From an uncultured Gammaproteobacteria bacterium (GTDB taxonomy: Bacteria > Patescibacteriota > Patescibacteriia > UBA1558 > S5-K13), in contig CAZWKI010000002.1 in assembly GCA_964634645.1 (NCBI GenBank), forward strand, positions 266 through 47,986: 47,721 nt of DNA, read 5' to 3'. Positions 1 to 40,809 of the stretch are shown one piece after another. Each line of letters opens with the position of its first letter. Within the stretch, counting starts at the first letter, position 1. A model generated the notes under the pieces. That model ran no database searches. It was not told the DNA's origin and saw only the letters and a list, made by a program, of their open reading frames with translations. A program made the position numbers and the translations under genes.

Positions 1-22
1 TGTGGATGGATCACCTCCTTTC
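1..22 (+). rRNA. rrs: 3' terminus of 16S rRNA (partial, continues upstream of window)
   Basis: GGATCACCTCCTT anti-Shine-Dalgarno tail at 8-20. Confidence 0.8.
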
Positions 23-226
23 TAAGGAGTAAAAAATTGATTCTCACGAATCAATTCATCGATCATCTGATTACATATCGGGTGAAGTTTCTACCACTAT
101 CTAGTTGTTAAACAAAAACAGTCTTTGTGACTCCATTGATTTTACAATAATTATGATGTATTATATTTATTGTTTAATGGGGTCGTTTTTTTTAAATATT
201 AGTTTCTAAATTTGTCTTTCAAAATT

Positions 227-247
227 ACCTGCTTGCCGGTAGGCAGG
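227..247. repeat. 21-nt GC-rich palindromic mini-element ACCTGCTTGCCGGTAGGCAGG flanked by AAAATT/AAAATT
   Basis: Palindrome with identical 6-nt flanks at 221-226 and 248-253. Similar copies lie at 12882-12898 and 37138-37158. Confidence 0.7.
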
Positions 248-286
248 AAAATTGAAAATTGAAAATAATAAATAGAAAATAGCTTA

Positions 287-541
287 GGGCGTGTAGCTCA
301 GTTGGTTAGAGCGCAACACTGACCCGCCTCCCGAAGTACAAACACAAATCAATTAAATTGAAAACTTTATTATCTATTGTTGGAGGGCGCATAGCTCAGT
401 TGGTTAGAGCGCAACACTGATAATGTTGAGGTCCCAAGTTCAACTCTTGGTGCGCCCACCAACAGTTGATAATACTGTTGTCCTTCGTACGGAGGGCAGG
501 TAATGTTGAGGTCCCAAGTTCGATCCTTGGCACGCCCACCA
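287..541 (+). tRNA. tRNA-Ile(GAU) interrupted between anticodon positions 35/36 by a 178-nt insert (323-500)
   Basis: Halves 287-322 and 501-541 join into a perfect 77-nt cloverleaf with encoded CCA. The ends of the insert are complementary to each other. Confidence 0.6.
385..461 (+). tRNA. tRNA-Ile(GAU), complete, lying inside the insert of the outer tRNA-Ile
   Basis: Hand-folded cloverleaf: GGGCGCA/TGCGCCC acceptor, anticodon loop CTGATAA, TTCAACT T-loop, CCA end. Confidence 0.9.
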
Positions 542-648
542 ATAGACACTTTAGAATAATGAATTTATAATGATGAATAAATTCAAGAATTTATTAATTA
601 ACTAATTTATTCAAAATTCAACATTAATAATTCAAAATTAAACTTCCG

Positions 649-723
649 CCGAAGTAGCTCAGCGGTAGAGCGAAGGACTGAAAATCCTTGCGTCGGCAGT
701 TCGACTCTGCCCTTCGGCACCAA
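649..723 (+). tRNA. tRNA-Phe(GAA)
   Basis: Cloverleaf: GCCGAAG/CTTCGGC acceptor, loop CTGAAAA, TTCGACT T-loop, CCA. Confidence 0.9.
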
Positions 724-826
724 AAACAATAATGAATTTTGAATTATGAATAATGAATTAAATTTTTAAATTCGATAATTAAATAATTTATTCAAAATTC
801 TAAATTTATAATTCAAAATTAGACTT

Positions 827-903
827 CGGGGTGTGGCGCAGTTGGCTAGCGCGCGTGCTTTGGGAGCATGAGGCCGTGGGTTCGAGTCCCACCACCCCGA
901 CCA
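827..903 (+). tRNA. tRNA-Pro(UGG)
   Basis: Cloverleaf with C1:G72, loop TTTGGGA, TTCGAGT T-loop, CCA. Confidence 0.9.
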
Positions 904-967: not shown

Positions 968-1032
968 GGTGGGACGATAAGTTTATCCCGCCGAAGCTTT
1001 AGTGAAGGCGGGAAGTCCCACCACCCCGACCA
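968..1032 (+). pseudogene. tRNA-Pro 3' fragment (T-arm, acceptor 3' strand and CCA) with a 28-nt GC hairpin (986-1013) inserted in the T-loop
   Basis: 1014-1032 AGTCCCACCACCCCGACCA is identical to the 3' end of tRNA-Pro(UGG). GGTGGGA at 968-974 pairs with TCCCACC. Confidence 0.7.
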
Positions 1033-1087
1033 TTCGACTCATCCCACTTTGTAGGATTCGCTCATGGTCTTCGACCAAAATTGAAAT

Positions 1088-1156: not shown

Positions 1157-3109
1157 ATGAATAAAATGCGCCTAAATAATAATGAGTTTCATTTTGGAGA
1201 TCAACACAAATTTGAAATTCAATCGACCATAAATCAAAAACCCTTTGAAGATCCAGTCGTGAGATCTTTCTTTACTAGGTGGTGCGAAATTAACGACTCT
1301 ATTGATCCACAAGTTGTAACTAGAAAAGAATTTAACAATCGGGGGATGCAAGGAATTTTGGAAAAAAAACCAGGCGGCAAGCAAACATTGTTTATCCCAG
1401 AGGACCTACAACTTTGGGAAATGATTGGTGTCATGGAGATTATTGATAAAGACACTTTTGCCGCAAAACAGGAAAGAACGACTGAAATAAAAGAAAAAGT
1501 GCTTGCACTTGGGAAAATTTTTGAAAATGCCGGAGTATATATTGCCGAACGACTTGATGGAATTGAGGATGGCAAAGAAATAGCCGAAGCGTTAGCATTA
1601 GAATTTTACCAGTATGGACAATCTATTACTCACGGTAAAGCCCAAAAAACACCACAAATTGATAAAATCTCTTCAAAAAGTCTCACGCCTCAAGAGACCG
1701 AAGCGATAGATCAATTTTTGGCCGGAGACAATTTGTATAAATCTCGAAAGCAAAGAATTAAAAAATTAACTACCGAAGATATAGCTCAATTTTTTGGCGG
1801 AGACAATTTATATAGATCACAAAAACAAAGAAATGAAAAATTAAACTCTGAAGATCAAGTAAAAAATGATGAGTTGTATGAAAAAGAACGTCAAAAAACC
1901 CTAGTCCAATTTTTCGCGGTAGCCGAAAAAGCATTTGCGATTGAAAGTAAAAATCTTGATGGAGCACTAAGAGAAAGTCCCACGAAACTAAAACCTTGGC
2001 AAAGTGACACCCCTATTCACAGCGCTTTTTTGAAAAGAATTAATAGGGCACTGACAAAACAAATTGAAACTCCAAAACGAGAATTTCAGACCTCTATATT
2101 TAGGCGTGGCATGGAACTGCTACAGCGCAATATGCCTTTTGACAAACTCCCTAATTGGGTTAAATATAGTTATCTTCACTGGCGGAATGGTGAAACCACA
2201 CTCAGAGAGGCTCTTAAGATTGACGAAATGGCAGCAGAGTTAGATCAAATACGTAAAACGGGAAATACTACACAAATAGCAAAAAAAGAACAAAAAATTG
2301 CCGACAAAATTCAAGAAGCCGTTTCAAATTTTTCTTATCAAAATCAATCAAATAATCCGTCAGAGATGGTTGCCAGCCAATGTATCAACTGTGTTGGCGC
2401 TTCAATGCTTGGAGGTGCACTAATGAAAGAAGCCGGTCTGAACTATTTAGTTGGACAAATACCTGGTCACTCTATACTTTTACTTGTGATGAGTGATGAG
2501 CGGGTTGAGTGGCGCGATATGCTCCATACTTCATTCAATGAACACATAACTGATGAAATGATAAGTGGTCAAAGAAAAGATGGCAAGCCATTGACCGTCA
2601 ATGATATTGTCGAATTTAGTCAGAAGCCGGGCTCTGAATCGCTAATATTTGATAATAACCCAAAAAAGTTGCGCTATCAATTATATTGTTTTAATAAGGG
2701 GCACCAACGTATAAATATCTTTGAACCGGAATACGGACAACAAATTCAGGTATTGAATAATACAGGCTACACCCTTAATTCGCTCGGCCGCTATGAAGAA
2801 GCAATTGAAGCGTACCGACAAGCAATTGAAATTGATCCAAAATATGCAGATCCCTACTTTAATTTAGGTATCAATCTTCATCATCTCTATCGCTATGAAG
2901 AAGCAATTGAAGCGTACCGACAAGCAATTGAAATTGATCCAAAGTTTGCTTATGCCTACTTTAATTTAGGTATCGTTCTTAATTATTCGCTCGGCCGCCG
3001 TGAAGAAGCAATTGAAGCGTACCAAAAATTTATTGAATTAGCAGATAATAAAAACGACTATCCTTTAATAGTCAAAGCCAAACAGATGATTGCGGATTTA
3101 AAAAAATAA
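1157..3109 (+). CDS. TPR-repeat protein with a possible transglutaminase-like Cys/His/Asp core
   Basis: Three C-terminal 34-aa TPR units (EEAIEAYRQAIEIDPK). Candidate catalytic motif QCINCVGASML...GHSILL...WRD. Internal repeat GDNLY(K/R)S(R/Q)KQR appears twice. Confidence 0.75.
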   Translation: MNKMRLNNNEFHFGDQHKFEIQSTINQKPFEDPVVRSFFTRWCEINDSIDPQVVTRKEFNNRGMQGILEKKPGGKQTLFIPEDLQLWEMIGVMEIIDKDTFAAKQERTTEIKEKVLALGKIFENAGVYIAERLDGIEDGKEIAEALALEFYQYGQSITHGKAQKTPQIDKISSKSLTPQETEAIDQFLAGDNLYKSRKQRIKKLTTEDIAQFFGGDNLYRSQKQRNEKLNSEDQVKNDELYEKERQKTLVQFFAVAEKAFAIESKNLDGALRESPTKLKPWQSDTPIHSAFLKRINRALTKQIETPKREFQTSIFRRGMELLQRNMPFDKLPNWVKYSYLHWRNGETTLREALKIDEMAAELDQIRKTGNTTQIAKKEQKIADKIQEAVSNFSYQNQSNNPSEMVASQCINCVGASMLGGALMKEAGLNYLVGQIPGHSILLLVMSDERVEWRDMLHTSFNEHITDEMISGQRKDGKPLTVNDIVEFSQKPGSESLIFDNNPKKLRYQLYCFNKGHQRINIFEPEYGQQIQVLNNTGYTLNSLGRYEEAIEAYRQAIEIDPKYADPYFNLGINLHHLYRYEEAIEAYRQAIEIDPKFAYAYFNLGIVLNYSLGRREEAIEAYQKFIELADNKNDYPLIVKAKQMIADLKK

Positions 3110-3396
3110 AACGGCAACCAGTTTTGCTAGCACGTAATTATACGACGACAAAAACGAGAGCAAGACGTAGATTCCTTTTTCCTCCACCCACATCCTTCTC
3201 GTCCCGCTAAGCGGGATCGCCCCGACAATTCTTCGTTCCGTGAAGCGGAACTTCGAATGGCGCGCCACTCCTTTGAAACTTTAAGTGAAAAAGGAAGCTA
3301 TTCGACTTTTCGAAGAAGAAGAAAGAATGGTCCACCGAAGATTTCTTGTTTATCGTAACTTTAGTGGAGATAGAAGCGAAGGTGGACACGCAACAA

Positions 3397-3444
3397 ACAG
3401 ATAAACTCTGTTTTTTTGTTTACCAAAAAATTATAAAATGATAA
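3397..3444 (+). repeat. 48-nt direct repeat (right copy)
   Basis: See 1088-1135. A third partial copy lies at about 910-935. Confidence 0.8.
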
Positions 3445-3973: not shown

Positions 3974-4113
3974 TAAAATCTTGAAATTTCCTAGCAAATT
4001 TAAATAGACAAAAACCCTCATTTCACAAAACCCTCTATTTATCATATAATTTAAAAGTGCTATAATAAAAGTGCCTATAAACAAAGGGCAAACTAATCAT
4101 TAATTAAAATAAA

Positions 4114-4592: not shown

Positions 4593-4955
4593 ATGAATAA
4601 AAAAACACTTAAACAAATTAAAGAAAATTTATTAAAGGAAAAAGAAGATTTAATAAAAGAATTAAATAGTTTCGCAAAAAAGAACACAAATGTTGAGAAT
4701 GAATATGATGCTAAATTTCCAGATTATGGAGATGACGAAGATGACAATGCATCTGAGGTAGCTGATTTTGAAAGCGATCTTTATTTAGAAAAGACTCTTG
4801 AAAAATCTCTTGAAAAGGTTGATGAGGCTCTAAAAATAATTGACAAAGGAACATATGGAAAATGCATTGTATGTGGAAAATCAATTCCAGAAGAAAGACT
4901 AGTAGCATTCCCTACTGCAAACAAATGCATGGACTGCAAAAAGAAAACTTTATAA
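4593..4955 (+). CDS. DksA/TraR-family C4 zinc-finger protein
   Basis: C-terminal CxxC-N17-CxxC (CIVCGKSIPEERLVAFPTANKCMDC). ATG at 4593 was chosen because the tracked TTG at 4545 lies inside the promoter. Confidence 0.8.
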   Translation: MNKKTLKQIKENLLKEKEDLIKELNSFAKKNTNVENEYDAKFPDYGDDEDDNASEVADFESDLYLEKTLEKSLEKVDEALKIIDKGTYGKCIVCGKSIPEERLVAFPTANKCMDCKKKTL

Positions 4956-4959
4956 AAAA

Positions 4960-5436
4960 ATGAAACAAAAAATTATCTCTATATCACTATTTTCTTTTTG
5001 TCTATTTATAATAGATAGAGCATCAAAATATTTAGCTTTAAATAAACTTCCATCTTATGGGGTTTATTTTTTTGAAAAAATAATTTATCTTAAATTAGAA
5101 AAAAACCTCGGCATTGCTTTTGGAATAGCTTTACCAAAAATATTTATAATTACTTTGACAATTATAATAATATTTTTATTGTTTTATTTTTTTATTAAGT
5201 ATTATAAGAAACAAAATAATCTTATTTGTTTATTGATTTTAATAGTTATAATCGGGGCAATAAGCAATCTCTTAGATAGGTTGTTTCATGGATATGTAAT
5301 TGATTTTATAAATATTTCAATTATTCCTGTCTTTAATTTGGCTGATTTTTATATATTTGTTTCTATGGTGATCTATATAATCTTGGAATTTAAACACAAA
5401 AAAACACCCCTCGAAGAATCAAAAGGTGTTTCTTAA
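4960..5436 (+). CDS. lspA: lipoprotein signal peptidase II
   Basis: Four-TM layout with NLGIAFG and NLLDRL...GYVIDFI...FNLAD motifs. Confidence 0.85.
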   Translation: MKQKIISISLFSFCLFIIDRASKYLALNKLPSYGVYFFEKIIYLKLEKNLGIAFGIALPKIFIITLTIIIIFLLFYFFIKYYKKQNNLICLLILIVIIGAISNLLDRLFHGYVIDFINISIIPVFNLADFYIFVSMVIYIILEFKHKKTPLEESKGVS

Positions 5437-6478: not shown

Positions 6479-6832
6479 CTAATATTCTAGTATTTTTATG
6501 CTTGCTTTTTTGCTTTTTAAATCAAGAAACACAAATACAAACAAAAGTTCGAAGTCGTTATCAACATCTCTATCCATTAAGTAATACAAAATTGATTTTT
6601 CAAGACGTTGTAATTTATAATATGAAATTGAGTCTTCCAAATCACCGTATTGAAAATTCGTTCTTGTTTTTACTTCTATAAAATATAATATTTTATCTTT
6701 TTCTGCCAAAACATCTATTTCGCCATAGCGAAAATAAATATTTCTATTCAAAATTTTATAACAGTGCTTTTCTAAATATCTTATAGCAATATCCTCCCCA
6801 AGTTTTCCTGTCTTTTGATTATATTTTTTCAT
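6479..6832 (-). CDS. yraN: YraN-family (UPF0102) endonuclease
   Basis: GKLGEDIAIRYLEK...GEIDVLAEKD..LYFIEVKTR motifs. Confidence 0.85.
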   Translation of the reverse strand: MKKYNQKTGKLGEDIAIRYLEKHCYKILNRNIYFRYGEIDVLAEKDKILYFIEVKTRTNFQYGDLEDSISYYKLQRLEKSILYYLMDRDVDNDFELLFVFVFLDLKSKKASIKILEY

Positions 6833-6981: not shown

Positions 6982-7386
6982 CTAATCTATATATTTCTCA
7001 TACATTTTTCTCTTTGCATCTTCTTGCCTTAACTTTGGAACTTTTACAAGATAGTGCTGAATAGCTGTAATAAGCCAAGATAACATTATTATCCACCACA
7101 AAATAAGTACAAACCTCATCTGGAAATATGGAATTCTTACTTTTCTAAAAAATATCAAAAATAAATTTATTACACCAGTTGTTATAGCAATGTCTGATAT
7201 CTTTATAATAAGAGATTTCTGGTATCTATCAATTTTCTTTCTAAACCAGGATTTTTTTATTAAATACTCTTTTATTATAAGAGAGAAAACTAGTAAAAAA
7301 ATAGAGGTCGAAATAATAACAACAAAAGTGCTATTTTTTAAAATGGGTGGATAAGCGTCAAATAAATATTGAAAATATATGTCCAT
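6982..7386 (-). CDS. hypothetical integral membrane protein
   Basis: 134-aa ORF with several TM segments, abutting the methyltransferase gene. Confidence 0.6.
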   Translation of the reverse strand: MDIYFQYLFDAYPPILKNSTFVVIISTSIFLLVFSLIIKEYLIKKSWFRKKIDRYQKSLIIKISDIAITTGVINLFLIFFRKVRIPYFQMRFVLILWWIIMLSWLITAIQHYLVKVPKLRQEDAKRKMYEKYID

Positions 7387-12898: not shown

Positions 12899-13165
12899 TT
12901 ATTTTAAAGGATCGTAACCACCACGAGACAATGGATTACATTTGATAATTCTCTTTATTGATAAGTATGAACCTTTGAAAATTCCGTATTTATCAATCGC
13001 ATCATATGAATATTTTGAACAATTTGGATAATATCTACAGCAACCAGCCGGATATTTGTAAGAAAACCATCCGGAATCAGGAGAAAGCGTTTTTTGATAT
13101 AATTTTATTAGGTATAGTGCAAATTTTTTCAACCCGTTAAATATTATTTTTTTATATGGAATCAT
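12899..13165 (-). CDS. yidD: membrane protein insertion efficiency factor YidD
   Basis: CRYYPNCSKYSYDAI motif and gene context. Confidence 0.85.
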   Translation of the reverse strand: MIPYKKIIFNGLKKFALYLIKLYQKTLSPDSGWFSYKYPAGCCRYYPNCSKYSYDAIDKYGIFKGSYLSIKRIIKCNPLSRGGYDPLK

Positions 13166-30686: not shown

Positions 30687-30721
30687 TGGTATCCCGGCTA
30701 GGAATCGAACCTAGATCCACA
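30687..30721 (-). pseudogene. tRNA-Arg(UCU) 3' fragment (positions 41-76)
   Basis: 35 nt identical to 30788-30822. Confidence 0.8.
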
Positions 30722-30787
30722 ATATATAATTTTAAAAGATTAATAAATTTTATAAATCCAAATGTTTCTTTATTTTTCTCTTACTTA

Positions 30788-30862
30788 TGGTATCCCGGCT
30801 AGGAATCGAACCTAGATCCACAGCTTAGAAGGCTGTTGTTCTATCCGTTGAACTACCAGGAC
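30788..30862 (-). tRNA. tRNA-Arg(UCU)
   Basis: Reverse complement folds as GTCCTGG...loop CTTCTAA...TTCGATT...CCGGGAT-A-CCA. Confidence 0.9.
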
Positions 30863-31042
30863 AACATAAATAAGAGAAAAATTATCAAAGCTTATCCCGC
30901 AAATGTCTACGAGCATTAGCGAGTAGCAACATTTGCGAGGACCCCGCGAAAGTTGAATATAATATTAGTTTTCTTGCGGGACCCCAAAAATAATATTCGC
31001 TTCATTCCGCAGAGCGAAATTTCGCTCATTTATTTTGTGGGG

Positions 31043-31077
31043 GAAGGCTGTTGTTCTATCCGTTGAACTACCAGGAC
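31043..31077 (-). pseudogene. tRNA-Arg(UCU) 5' fragment (positions 1-35)
   Basis: 35 nt identical to the 5' part of the complete copy. Breaks after anticodon position 35. Confidence 0.8.
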
Positions 31078-33195: not shown

Positions 33196-33272
33196 TGGTG
33201 GGTCCTATAGGATTCGAACCTATGGCCTTCTCGGTGTAAACGAGACGCTCTAACCAACTGAGCCAAGGACCC
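33196..33272 (-). tRNA. tRNA-Val(UAC)
   Basis: Reverse complement folds as GGGTCCT..., loop TTTACAC, TTCGAAT, CCA. Confidence 0.9.
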
Positions 33273-33310
33273 AAAAGATTTTTAATTTACAATTTACTAT
33301 TTTCAAATAA

Positions 33311-33378
33311 TGGGTCCAACTGTCGTAGTTAAACGGAGATCCCGCATAAGTGAAACGCTTGCGGGAAGCCAAGGACCC
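33311..33378 (-). pseudogene. tRNA-Val 5' fragment with a GC hairpin (33340-33366) inserted after position 12
   Basis: 33367-33378 equals tRNA positions 1-12, and the same upstream spacer is present. CAGTTGG follows after the insert. Confidence 0.7.
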
Positions 33379-33387
33379 AAAATATTT

Positions 33388-33648
33388 TTAATTTATTATT
33401 TTCAATTTACAATTTATCAAATTTTCTTTTTCAATTCTTGATAATTTTTTAATTTGCCTCTCCCTTTTCATTGCATCTATTTTATTTTCAAATTTTTCAT
33501 AATATACAATCTTAACGGGCTTTCTATATTTTGTATATTTTGCACCGCCTCCGGTATTGTGTTTATTTTCTCTTGATTTCAAATCTTTACAATATCCAGT
33601 ATATAATGTTTTGTCACTACAAAGGGCTATATATACATAAAATATCAT
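33388..33648 (-). CDS. GIY-YIG nuclease-domain protein (single domain, 86 aa)
   Basis: FYVYIALCSDKTLYTGYCKDLKSRENKHN ... RERQIKK. Confidence 0.85.
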   Translation of the reverse strand: MIFYVYIALCSDKTLYTGYCKDLKSRENKHNTGGGAKYTKYRKPVKIVYYEKFENKIDAMKRERQIKKLSRIEKENLINCKLKIIN

Positions 33649-33683: not shown

Positions 33684-33705
33684 ATGGTGGACTTGGTGGG
33701 AAACC
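33684..33705 (-). pseudogene. tRNA-Ala(UGC) 3' fragment
   Basis: ATGGTGGACTTGGTGGGA is identical to the 3' end of the complete gene at 34519. It is followed by AACC after a 4-nt gap. Confidence 0.7.
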
Positions 33706-33823
33706 ATTGGAGATATATTATCATGGAATTAAAGCTTTGGCAAGAATTAAAATTAATAAATTGAATAATAAAAAACGATGATATTTCTAAAAACATCATC
33801 GCCTAATTTTGCCATTCCTTGTT

Positions 33824-34027
33824 TTACCATTTCATACGACTCATAAGATCGGCTATAATATCGGCTGGTGTTATACGTTGAAGTCCTTTTTCAGTCATAA
33901 CATAAACTTCTTTGTTTAGACAGCTAATATCATATTTTGTTTCTTTCGGTTGCCCCCGTGTTGAGTCGTCTATTGGTTTTTGCTCTGAATCACCTTGTAA
34001 TTTTTCATGATTACTTTCTGTAACCAT
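33824..34027 (-). CDS. hypothetical 67-aa protein
   Basis: GGAGGAG Shine-Dalgarno sequence. Terminator lies downstream at about 33775-33810. Confidence 0.55.
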   Translation of the reverse strand: MVTESNHEKLQGDSEQKPIDDSTRGQPKETKYDISCLNKEVYVMTEKGLQRITPADIIADLMSRMKW

Positions 34028-34109
34028 ATCTCCTCCTAAAACTTTCTAGACTTAATTATTATTTATCCTATCACTTATCTTAATTTTGTAAATAGACAAA
34101 CAAAAAACA

Positions 34110-34352
34110 CTAAATTAATCTTTTTTTCATAAACGCTATTCCTGAGCCACTCTTCAAATATTTTTCAAATCCTACGGCTTTTAATTTATCTTCAAACACA
34201 GCATAAAAAATTATTTTTAGTGGTTTTATATTGCGCGTTGAACCTACCTTACCAGAATTATGATAGAATATTCTTTTTTTCAAATTCGTAGTAAAACCCT
34301 TATAAATTCTATTGTTATATTTTTTACTTCTTAAAATATAGACGTAATACAT
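34110..34352 (-). CDS. GIY-YIG nuclease-domain protein (single domain, about 80 aa)
   Basis: MYYVYILRSKKYNNRIYKGFTTNLKKRIFYHN. Confidence 0.85.
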   Translation of the reverse strand: MYYVYILRSKKYNNRIYKGFTTNLKKRIFYHNSGKVGSTRNIKPLKIIFYAVFEDKLKAVGFEKYLKSGSGIAFMKKRLI

Positions 34353-34518
34353 AAAAATAAAAATCACTTATAAAATAAGCGACCCTTTGATTAATTTTAA
34401 ACTCCTGTGATTCACTACTTGGGTACACCATCCGAAACTCAAAATTAATATGTATATATAAAATCAGATTGATGTCCTTCGCTAAAGCTGCGGACATCAT
34501 CTTCACTAAAGTGAAGGA

Positions 34519-34595
34519 TGGTGGACTTGGTGGGATTCGAACCCACGACCCTCTGCTTGCAAAGCAGATGCTCTAACCAACTGAGCCACAAGCCC
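34519..34595 (-). tRNA. tRNA-Ala(UGC)
   Basis: G3:U70 pair, loop TTTGCAA, TTCGAAT, CCA. Confidence 0.9.
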
Positions 34596-34669
34596 ATAGT
34601 TTAATTTAAAATTAAATATTTCAAATTACAAAATAAATTTTAATATTCTTGACTCTGACGAAGTTAGTT

Positions 34670-34720
34670 TAACCAACTGCCTGTCCGCCATAGCGTAGCG
34701 AAGGCGGAAGCCACAAGCCC
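34670..34720 (-). pseudogene. tRNA-Ala 5' fragment (positions 1-22) with a 29-nt hairpin insert (34680-34708) after position 12
   Basis: AGCCACAAGCCC and TAACCAACTG match the real gene on either side of CCTGTCCGCCATAGCGTAGCGAAGGCGGA. Confidence 0.75.
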
Positions 34721-37137: not shown

Positions 37138-37158
37138 ACCTACCTGCCGGCAGGCAGG
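37138..37158. repeat. 21-nt palindromic mini-element ACCTACCTGCCGGCAGGCAGG flanked by AAATCT/AAATCT
   Basis: Perfect 6-nt direct repeats at 37132-37137 and 37159-37164. Confidence 0.7.
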
Positions 37159-40630: not shown

Positions 40631-40705
40631 TGGTACCCTCGCTAGGAATTGAACCCAGATTTTATCCTTAGGACGGATCTGTTCTATCCGTTGAACTACG
40701 AGGGC
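40631..40705 (-). tRNA. tRNA-Arg(CCU)
   Basis: Reverse complement folds as a cloverleaf with loop GTCCTAA and TTCAATT. G1:U72 wobble. Confidence 0.8.
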
Positions 40706-40740
40706 ATATTGGTTTCAAATTTAAAAGGTCAAATGTAAAG

Positions 40741-40809
40741 TGTTCTATAAACAAACTTCTCGTCCCGCCGAAATTTTAATGAAGGCGGGATCCGTTGAAC
40801 TACGAGGGC
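40741..40809 (-). pseudogene. tRNA-Arg(CCU) 5' fragment (positions 1-27) with a 42-nt insert in the D-loop containing hairpin 40763-40790
   Basis: TCCGTTGAACTACGAGGGC and TGTTCTAT match the real gene on either side of the insert. Confidence 0.75.

Follow-up and report, generated by a model that had tools for sequence, protein, structure and literature searches.

A tRNA-Ile(GAU) gene on contig CAZWKI010000002.1 of an ultra-small bacterium of the Patescibacteria, or candidate phyla radiation (CPR), is interrupted within its anticodon by 178 bp of DNA that enclose a second, complete tRNA-Ile(GAU) gene. We analyzed a 47.7-kb stretch of this contig, referred to below as the window, which is all of the sequence from this genome covered here. 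The reading that best accounts for the arrangement, with a probability of roughly 0.78 in our estimation, is a recent and precise insertion of DNA, with a functional inner gene and an outer gene reduced to relic halves, and not an RNA-processing device. Our comparisons establish at the level of sequence that the 178 bp are a foreign-type insertion placed precisely at position 35/36 of a native gene, that they arrived recently relative to the split of this genome from its closest relatives (loci L033 and L017), and that the event is part of a recurrent process in this genome and in related ones. tRNA genes were called with ARAGORN, families were matched with Rfam cmscan, and protein domains were assigned with Pfam. 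L-numbers denote the comparison loci fetched during the analysis; 131 loci entered the similarity searches with the insert arms and flanks, and a genome scan with a T-arm/acceptor pattern gave 102 loci.

When positions 287-322 (36 nt) and 501-541 (41 nt) are joined, ARAGORN calls them as tRNA-Ile(gat), a 77-nt cloverleaf with an encoded CCA, in agreement with the preliminary description of this DNA, which had proposed an uninterrupted cloverleaf broken at 35/36. The anticodon is split as GA/T between positions 35 and 36, and the junctions read ...CTGA/CCC...AGG/TAAT.... The insert (323-500, 178 nt) contains no open reading frame (ORF), and 101 nt of it are non-tRNA sequence, in arms of 62 and 39 nt. 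The second tRNA-Ile(GAU) that had been placed inside it, at 385-461, was recovered complete by ARAGORN and by Rfam (74.4 bits). The 5' and 3' halves of the outer gene are identical to the inner gene at 34/36 and 36/41 positions, with exact blocks of 29 and 21 nt. Because of this identity, and because the joined halves match the intact gene of relatives at 76 of 77 positions, the resemblance is not fortuitous. Between the two copies, 7 of 77 positions differ, namely two compensatory acceptor pairs and three T-loop bases, which bears out the compensatory changes noted earlier; the anticodon-arm look-alike CAACAGTTGATAATACTGTTG is likewise present at 460-480. Neither a target-site duplication nor a direct repeat was found at the insert borders, and both native halves are present once each. 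ARAGORN with intron models (0-400 nt), a check that the preliminary description had proposed, was run and left the outer gene unreported because the break is not at 37/38.

The outer allele is native to the locus. In the two closest loci by spacer sequence, L033 ("Candidatus Komeilibacteria" S5_K13) and L017, the tRNA-Ile gene is uninterrupted and 76/77 identical to the joined outer gene, so the search for an uninterrupted outer gene in related genomes that had been suggested as a test was successful. The sole difference lies in the T loop (GATC versus GATT), and it occurs in intact tRNA-Ile genes of other Patescibacteria. The order 16S, tRNA-Ile, tRNA-Phe, tRNA-Pro(UGG) is common to L033, L017, L090, and L092, and L016 has the same tRNA order from the 3' end of tRNA-Ile onwards. 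Downstream, the 106 nt that follow the outer 3' half (542-647) match L017 at 92% over the first 77 nt. Given this native spacer and the uninterrupted gene of the relatives, the outer allele is in its native context and the relatives represent the empty site. In window positions 1-903, as in L017, L033, L090, L092, and L016, neither tRNA-Ala nor a 23S gene follows the 16S gene; tRNA-Ile, tRNA-Phe, and tRNA-Pro(UGG) come next, and then protein genes. The rRNA genes are thus not linked to one another, and the group has kept a common tRNA order.

The inner allele is of a foreign type. It is identical at 77/77 positions to the tRNA-Ile of L090 and at 75/77 to that of L092, which represent a more distant lineage with a different spacer. 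The match extends beyond the gene: window positions 366-472 are 93.5% identical to L092 positions 4001-4107, a span that takes in 19 nt 5' and 11 nt 3' of the gene, and positions 351-365 match the flank 5' of the tRNA-Ile gene in L004. From these flank and allele matches it follows that the insert is a piece of a foreign tRNA-Ile locus, and only 323-350 and 473-500 are left unexplained. The inner copy has what a tRNA gene should have, a canonical cloverleaf, the anticodon GAU, an encoded CCA, and identity to the sole tRNA-Ile at the same locus elsewhere (L090). As judged from these allele comparisons, the covariation between the copies is that of two functional orthologues that diverged before the insertion and does not come from later selection on the outer gene. 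Of the two interpretations in the preliminary description, an insertion that targets tRNA genes and supplies a replacement tRNA of its own is thus the one that agrees with a native outer allele and an inner allele and flanks of foreign type. A purely internal origin, in which the resident tRNA-Ile was duplicated into its own sequence, with later divergence or conversion of the copies and no horizontal transfer, draws some support from the tRNA-Arg(UCU) case described below, where the inner and outer sequences are identical and a same-genome source is possible. For tRNA-Ile we regard it as very unlikely; the seven differences are the states of two extant lineages (L033/L017 for the outer gene and L090/L092 for the inner), and the inner flanks match L092 and L004, not the native spacer.

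The other interpretation, a new kind of tRNA intron or a permuted arrangement, was not supported: there is no group I core and no bulge-helix-bulge (BHB), the site is empty in relatives, and sister genes are broken. A group I intron requires a U at the last exon position, for the U-G pair of P1, and a G as the final intron base. That final G is present in the insert, but the 5' exon ends ...CTGA, in A and not in U, and no other placement of the boundaries is possible. Over 150-1150, cmscan detected tRNAs and noise only, with no Intron_gpI and no other non-tRNA Rfam family, whether run at the gathering threshold or at E<=10. A BHB consists of two 3-nt bulges on opposite strands with a 4-bp helix between them, each bulge with a splice site. 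None was found by folding or by hand, and BHB registers at 35/36 give mismatches. Folding puts the two junctions face to face at the base of a single helix, with A-U, C-G, and C-G pairs beside a 3x2 internal loop; in this model the geometry is that of a palindrome dropped into the site and not that of a BHB. The halves also differ from those of split or permuted tRNAs in lying in cis, 178 nt apart, and in normal order, with GC-rich complementary arms that form no BHB. Pfam scans of 39 window ORFs found the RNase P protein and no EndA-type endonuclease or RNA ligase. Excision of an RNase III type was set aside, as without ligation it would leave the tRNA nicked in the anticodon.

Wider searches gave no second instance of such a gene. 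A scan of Joint Genome Institute (JGI) metagenomes for the tRNA-Ile 5' half followed by CCC returned eight matches, all of them random non-tRNA sequence. No other tRNA-Ile split at 35/36 was found, and all patescibacterial tRNA-Ile genes among the 102 genome matches are intact. Antisense ORFs across the junction were absent from the protein collection, in which the homologues are ordinary Ile-Ala tandems, and a search of phage GenBank entries with 287-541 gave generic tRNA similarity only. Virtual removal of all GC hairpins from the window, followed by ARAGORN, uncovered no tRNA that exists only in interrupted form.

These results bear on the possibility that the outer gene is a true intron-containing or cis-split tRNA whose halves are ligated by some novel bacterial machinery (an endonuclease together with RtcB, for instance), such that two tRNA-Ile molecules come from one transcript. 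The exons do join exactly and carry no damaging mutation, the insert termini pair beside the anticodon stem within a stable nested fold (z = -5.3), and the layout resembles that of the Nanoarchaeum split-tRNA halves with their GC-rich complementary leaders. We nevertheless give this possibility very little credence. The junctions are opposite each other, not staggered by 4 bp with 3-nt bulges, and the 5' exon ending in A goes with the lack of any group I signature. The insert is absent from the closest relatives, which carry the gene uninterrupted, and has no other example in the genomes and metagenomes scanned; the sister structures described below are demonstrably broken genes; hairpin removal reveals no tRNA known only as interrupted; and the intact inner gene already supplies the same anticodon. 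It is equally improbable that the GC-rich inserts at fixed positions are spliced from transcripts and that the outer tRNA-Ile is still expressed. Splicing of the outer tRNA-Ile would make this locus the first tRNA intron of Bacteria to be protein- or host-spliced, with the added feature that a second tRNA lies within it.

Pairing of the insert ends, which the preliminary description had put forward as a means to bring the exon ends together, is seen in the minimum free energy fold of 287-541 (nested cloverleaves, -91.6 kcal/mol, z = -5.3 versus shuffles, insert ends paired); as a feature of the ends themselves the proposal fared less well, with complementarity only modestly above chance. The inverted repeat formed by the 28-nt insert ends scores 19, versus 10.8 +/- 2.4 in shuffles, a score reached by 34 of 5000 shuffles, and a fold of the arms alone has z = -1.4. 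In the full fold the look-alike at 460-480 pairs with the leader of the inner tRNA; the initial segment of the look-alike shares homology with the trailer native to L092. The GC ends of the insert on their own resemble other hairpins in the window (227-246 and 37143-37158), with the shared form CC(C/T)GCC...GG(C/G)(A/G)GG. The latter two are small hairpins, CCTGCTTGCCGGTAGGCAGG and CCTGCCGGCAGGCAGG, in AT-rich intergenic DNA.

The tRNA-Ile gene is one of several broken tRNA genes in the window. Partial copies were detected by BLAST of the 11 window tRNAs against the window itself. The closest parallel is tRNA-Arg(UCU), on the reverse strand. Old positions 1-35 (31077-31043) are followed at 35/36, the same cloverleaf position as in tRNA-Ile, by a 148-nt cluster of GC hairpins (31042-30895), then by what are probably old positions 36-41 (TAAGCT, 30894-30889), and finally by old positions 41-75 (30721-30687). 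A second insert within this unit holds an intact tRNA (30862-30788) with a 26-nt leader and a 66-nt trailer, and the inner and outer sequences are 100% identical. In tRNA-Ala(UGC), old positions 1-12, a 29-nt hairpin, and old positions 13-22 (34720-34670) precede an intact tRNA (34595-34519). The same insert also holds a GIY-YIG ORF (34367-34110) and a 67-amino-acid (aa) ORF (34027-33824), and old positions 61-77 lie 800 nt further on (33701-33685), with old positions 23-60 missing. The tRNA-Val relic consists of positions 1-12, a hairpin element, and positions 13-19 and 68-74. The relic of tRNA-Arg(CCU) comprises positions 1-20 and the hairpin TCCCGCC...GGCGGGA followed by ATAGAACA, and that of tRNA-Pro(UGG) comprises the T-stem GTGGG, the hairpin TCCCGCC...GGCGGGA inside the T loop, and positions 59-77. 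Since tRNA segments are missing from the Ala, Val, Arg(CCU), and Pro relics, no splicing could restore tRNAs from them. Concerning the Ala insert, the 67-aa ORF (33824-34027, reverse strand) has no Pfam match, lies between two GIY-YIG genes, and is a gene call in three independent assemblies (L114-L116).

Comparable structures are found in relatives. L017 has a nested tRNA-Phe, with old positions 1-12, a hairpin, positions 13-17, the new gene, and then the old T arm with a T-loop hairpin and the 3' end. In L033 and L017, tRNA-Pro 5' fragments (positions 1-17) are followed by a hairpin, a GIY-YIG ORF, and the intact gene. L121 and L122, which are syntenic with the Leu-Ala-Val region of the window, carry two or three relic units 5' of tRNA-Ala, and L121 also has one 5' of tRNA-Val; the Ala relic of L122 is orthologous to that of the window and has extra hairpins at 17/18 of the type present in the tRNA-Pro of L033. 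In L082 and L093 (labelled Doudnabacteria and Saccharibacteria), tRNA-Ala positions 1-20, a hairpin, and positions 21-26 lead to a GIY-YIG ORF that runs into the intact tRNA. The element that follows position 12 aligns across the Val, Phe, and Ala relics of three genomes, and 26 of its 27 positions are identical between the window Val relic and the L017 Phe relic. Since such elements are shared across tRNAs and genomes, the small GC-rich palindromes are mobile. The cloverleaf positions affected, whichever the tRNA or genome, are 12/13, 17/18, 19-21, 35/36, and the T loop, and dead copies were also struck. These mini-insertions are precise and show no target duplication, except for a possible one-base overlap in the Arg relics. 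A further duplication of a tRNA 3' end was noted in the patescibacterial metagenome-assembled genome of L016, where a 14-nt 3' fragment of tRNA-Gly(UCC) (6783-6796) lies about 190 nt 3' of the intact gene (6982-7053), after a very GC-rich stretch.

Stand-alone genes for GIY-YIG nucleases lie beside several of the tRNA genes and relics. The ORFs encode 80- to 90-aa catalytic domains (PF01541) without a recognizable DNA-binding domain; the two in the window are at 33388-33648 and 34110-34367, both on the reverse strand. In most loci examined, these ORFs or their homologues stop 4-10 nt short of the 5' end of a tRNA or relic or run into it. This adjacency, seen in L117-L121 (for example, L117 10001-10255, L120 6001-6252, and L121 6001-6240), L033, L017, L082, L093, and L090, is tight across distant Patescibacteria. 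The homologue of the second GIY-YIG ORF abuts an intact tRNA-Val in L117; in the window, a relic stands at this place and the intact duplicate lies 37 nt downstream. An arrangement of the homing-cassette type is present in the tRNA-Ala insert and in relatives and is absent from the Ile insert, which has no ORF. By association only, the GIY-YIG nucleases are candidates for making breaks in the anticodon loop.

Taken together, these observations suggest the following course of events. The native tRNA-Ile was opened exactly at 35/36, and 178 bp were inserted with no bases lost or duplicated. The insert consists of a tRNA-Ile minigene of another lineage, with about 34 nt of leader and 11 nt of trailer, bracketed by two 28-nt GC-rich arms. 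The inner gene presumably provides a working tRNA-Ile, probably expressed under the promoter-like motif at 249-280 or by transcription that continues past the 16S gene; the same motif also occurs 5' of the tRNA-Val relic and of tRNA-Ala(GGC), and here the entire nested unit is probably under its control. The inner tRNA would be released by RNase P and 3' processing, and the outer halves would be discarded as leader and trailer, such that the outer gene is a young relic that has accumulated no damage yet. The event belongs to a recurrent process in which GC-rich palindromic inserts strike tRNA genes at fixed cloverleaf positions, leaving intact copies inside or beside the broken ones. As to the nature of the insert, our preference, held tentatively and at somewhat less than even odds, is for a self-complementing mobile mini-element that is specific for tRNA genes and inserts precisely, with no target duplication. 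The parallel insertion at 35/36 of tRNA-Arg and the GC ends shared with the hairpins at 227-246 and 37143-37158 are consistent with this model. Such mini-elements may be mobilized by the tRNA-adjacent GIY-YIG nucleases. Alternatively, repair of a break in the anticodon loop could have captured foreign DNA.

Several points weigh against an insertion that left the outer gene a relic. No disabling change is seen in the outer halves, and the single difference between them and the relatives recurs in functional tRNA-Ile genes elsewhere. The exact junction and the pairing of insert ends that brings the exon ends together also look like an intron, and the inverted repeat is weak, since its score is reached at 1.5% of random window positions. 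A blastn-short comparison with the window and the 131 loci, together with a scan of IMG/VR for either arm (0 matches), found no second copy of the insert or of its arms, and Pfam scans found no transposase, integrase, or reverse transcriptase in the 47.7-kb window. The link between the GIY-YIG genes and the ORF-less Ile insert rests on association. The evidence on further tRNA-Ile genes and on a splicing system comes from 47.7 kb of the genome. Finally, four routes led to no independent assembly across 322/323 and 500/501: the neighboring tetratricopeptide repeat (TPR) protein is on one contig only, Logan contigs with the HU protein start inside the TPR gene, short of the tRNA-Ile junctions, contigs reached through HU homologues of relatives do not extend to a tRNA-Ile, and antisense ORFs that cross the junction have no entry in the protein collection. 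The TPR gene (1157-3109), which stands between tRNA-Pro and the HU gene, codes for 650 aa with TPR repeats at the C terminus. L017 lacks a counterpart at the same place, its HU gene lying about 2 kb beyond tRNA-Pro, and Logan assemblies are interrupted within the TPR gene.

Because the contig is metagenome assembled, the inner and outer alleles match two lineages, and the junctions are known from a single assembly, we also considered an assembly or amplification chimera that merged the tRNA-Ile loci of two strains. We judge this to be extremely improbable. A graph chimera would switch within shared k-mers and not at the anticodon, the exact repeats of 29 and 21 nt are below the usual assembly k-mers, and a chimera would not create 28-nt arms that match neither lineage. 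Analogous relics are reproduced in independent assemblies, and the nested tRNA-Phe of L017 comes from an unrelated assembly. For runs SRR8925802 and SRR8925769, the Logan assemblies agree with this genome at 100%. The Ala/Val relic region is found at 100% identity in Logan assemblies of two other sequencing runs (the Ala relic in L114), and its Val part is found at 99.5% in a European Nucleotide Archive (ENA) assembly; this class of relic is therefore real and not an assembly artifact.

Tyrosine integrases often use the anticodon loop or T loop of tRNA genes as targets, which raises the possibility that the insert is the remnant of an integrase-borne island or prophage in the anticodon loop of tRNA-Ile that was later almost wholly deleted. 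The look-alike at 460-480 resembles an anticodon-arm att core, and ordinary att-type 3' duplications occur in our comparison set. Such a remnant would predict a hybrid intact tRNA and a 3' direct repeat, not native halves around a complete foreign tRNA. There is no direct repeat at the borders and no integrase in the window, and the look-alike is uninterrupted and partly homologous to the L092 trailer. We consider this origin highly improbable. Three related candidates were rejected. For an integrase-type island, no attL/attR direct repeat of the tRNA 3' part was found, and no integrase in the insert or window; for att-site recombination at 460-480, the look-alike is intact and the predicted hybrid sites are absent; and for ends of the IS200/IS605 type, subterminal hairpins and a shared target tetranucleotide are both lacking. 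The att-type duplications just mentioned are alphaproteobacterial tRNA-Val 3' halves that follow unrelated sequence in one genome and three IMG/VR contigs (L021, about 4880-4935, reverse strand; L103, about 13040-13098; L104; L105); they are ordinary prophage att-site duplications, in contrast to the nested tRNA-Ile.

Table 1. Features of the nested tRNA-Ile locus and of the broken tRNA genes in the window
Feature	Position	Strand	Basis
16S rRNA gene 3' end	1..22	+	GGATCACCTCCTTTCT aligns with 16S ends of L090, L092, L017, and L033
Promoter-like AT-rich motif TTGAAA-17-GAAAAT, just 5' of outer 5' half	249..280	+	Promoter scan
Outer native-type tRNA-Ile, tRNA positions 1-35	287..322	+	
5' GC-rich arm of insert (CCCGCCTCCCGAAG...), imperfect inverted repeat of 473-500	323..350	+	Unmatched in 131 loci and IMG/VR
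Inner tRNA leader, donor type	351..384	+	366-384 similar to L092 flank; 351-365 (AATTAAATTGAAAAC) similar to L004 flank
Inner tRNA-Ile(GAU), intact, foreign allele type, presumed functional	385..461	+	ARAGORN; Rfam, 74.4 bits
Inner tRNA trailer, donor type, part of anticodon-arm look-alike	462..472	+	Alignment with L092
3' GC-rich arm of insert (...CTTCGTACGGAGGGCAGG)	473..500	+	Fold; inverted-repeat statistics
Outer native-type tRNA-Ile, positions 36-76 and CCA, running on into native downstream spacer	501..541	+	
tRNA-Pro(UGG) 3' relic, 3' of intact tRNA-Pro (827-903)	969..1032	+	
tRNA-Arg(UCU) sister case	30687..31077	-	Window BLAST; alignment
GIY-YIG ORF (33648-33388), tRNA-Val relic (33378-33311), intact tRNA-Val (33272-33196)	33196..33648	-	
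tRNA-Ala(UGC) sister case	33685..34720	-	Window BLAST; Pfam; 100% in Logan contig L114
tRNA-Arg(CCU) relic, then intact tRNA (40705-40631)	40631..40809	-	

The surroundings of these genes show further features. The tRNA genes of the window encode CCA, and its proteins, among them NusA, the RNase P protein, YidC, and those of type IV pilus genes by Pfam, are singletons at 90% identity. A conserved trailer, TTCGACT followed after 25-30 nt by GCTCATGGTCTTCGACCA, occurs after tRNA CCA ends in several patescibacterial lineages and has no Rfam match. We found it at window positions 1032-1077, at about 2190-2267 in L017, after tRNA-Pro in L033, at 326-365 in L090, at about 5345-5395 and 5550-5600 in L084, and at about 4950-5055 in L022; in the window it follows the tRNA-Pro 3' relic and not the intact gene. 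A module that combines a terminator-like hairpin (ACAGAT..ATCTGTTTTTTT) with a promoter-like TTTACC-17-TATAAA is present at 1088-1135 and 3397-3444 and at 1903-1949 in L017. Its two window copies, one 5' of the TPR gene and one 5' of tRNA-Pro(GGG), share 92% identity across 48 nt. The interval from the TPR gene to tRNA-Pro(GGG) includes a GC-richer, hairpin-dense non-coding stretch (3140-3395) that is found at 100% identity in Logan contigs L123 and L124; it contains TCCCGCTAAGCGGGA at 3202-3216 and GTCCACC..GGTGGAC at about 3330-3388 and has no Rfam match.

That mobile DNA lands in tRNA genes and mends the damage with its own sequence is already known. In the literature that we searched, we came across no account of nested tRNA genes or of tRNA introns in CPR bacteria, and we found no description of a complete foreign tRNA gene precisely inside a resident anticodon or of palindromic inserts at the same cloverleaf positions across tRNAs and genomes. 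If the pattern holds, it would point to continual turnover and horizontal replacement of patescibacterial tRNA genes, likewise without a description that we could find, of which the nested tRNA-Ile is the cleanest example, and it would suggest a role for the many stand-alone GIY-YIG genes beside tRNAs. tRNA relics of this kind mislead tRNA counts and intron prediction in metagenome-assembled genomes.

Among known systems, prophages and islands that target tRNA genes share with the structures described here the use of a tRNA gene as a landing site, the functional tRNA kept by the incoming DNA, and the relic that remains. In their case, however, the 3' part is replaced by a site-specific crossover with a direct repeat and an integrase, whereas the Ile insert places a whole foreign tRNA between native halves within 178 bp, with no repeat and no integrase. 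Bacterial group I introns are known from the anticodon loops of tRNA-Leu, tRNA-fMet, tRNA-Ile, and tRNA-Arg in cyanobacteria and proteobacteria. The insertion site in the anticodon loop, the bacterial host, and the G at the end of the insert are all reminiscent of them, but here there is no ribozyme core, the exon ends in A and not U, the non-tRNA sequence amounts to 101 nt, and the cargo is a tRNA gene. Homing-endonuclease cassettes offer another comparison. Mitochondrial GIY-YIG ORFs bring a duplicate of the gene end that they displace. As in such cassettes, GIY-YIG genes are linked here to tRNA genes, foreign alleles stand beside resident relics, and the tRNA-Ala insert holds a GIY-YIG ORF; unlike them, the Ile insert is ORF-less, and the GIY-YIG proteins, with their 80- to 90-aa catalytic domains, are known from sequence alone. 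In phage T4, the GIY-YIG homing endonuclease SegB is encoded in the tRNA cluster, and Seg proteins carry out intronless homing (PMC2330249).

In Archaea, BHB introns, split and tri-split tRNAs, and the transposing tRNA introns of Thermoproteales have been described (PMC10714607). These have in common with our structures non-canonical cloverleaf sites, GC-rich complementary flanks, and related inserts in different tRNAs; they differ in that no BHB is present here, the tRNA genes are those of a bacterium and encode CCA, and the interrupted copies are for the most part incomplete genes. REP/REPIN sequences and miniature inverted-repeat transposable elements (MITEs) are, like the inserts described here, small and GC-rich with hairpins in an AT-rich genome; no RAYT or transposase was identified here. 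The rRNA genes of CPR bacteria contain many short uncharacterized insertions, and GIY-YIG ORFs occur in those that are not group I or II introns (PMC11270868). What sets our inserts apart from all three groups is that the targets are tRNAs, that the positions in the cloverleaf are fixed, that no target-site duplication is formed, and that one insert encloses a complete tRNA gene. The rRNA insertions also strike structural-RNA genes of CPR bacteria, and the palindromic inserts in tRNA genes may be the tRNA counterpart of these short, unexplained elements.

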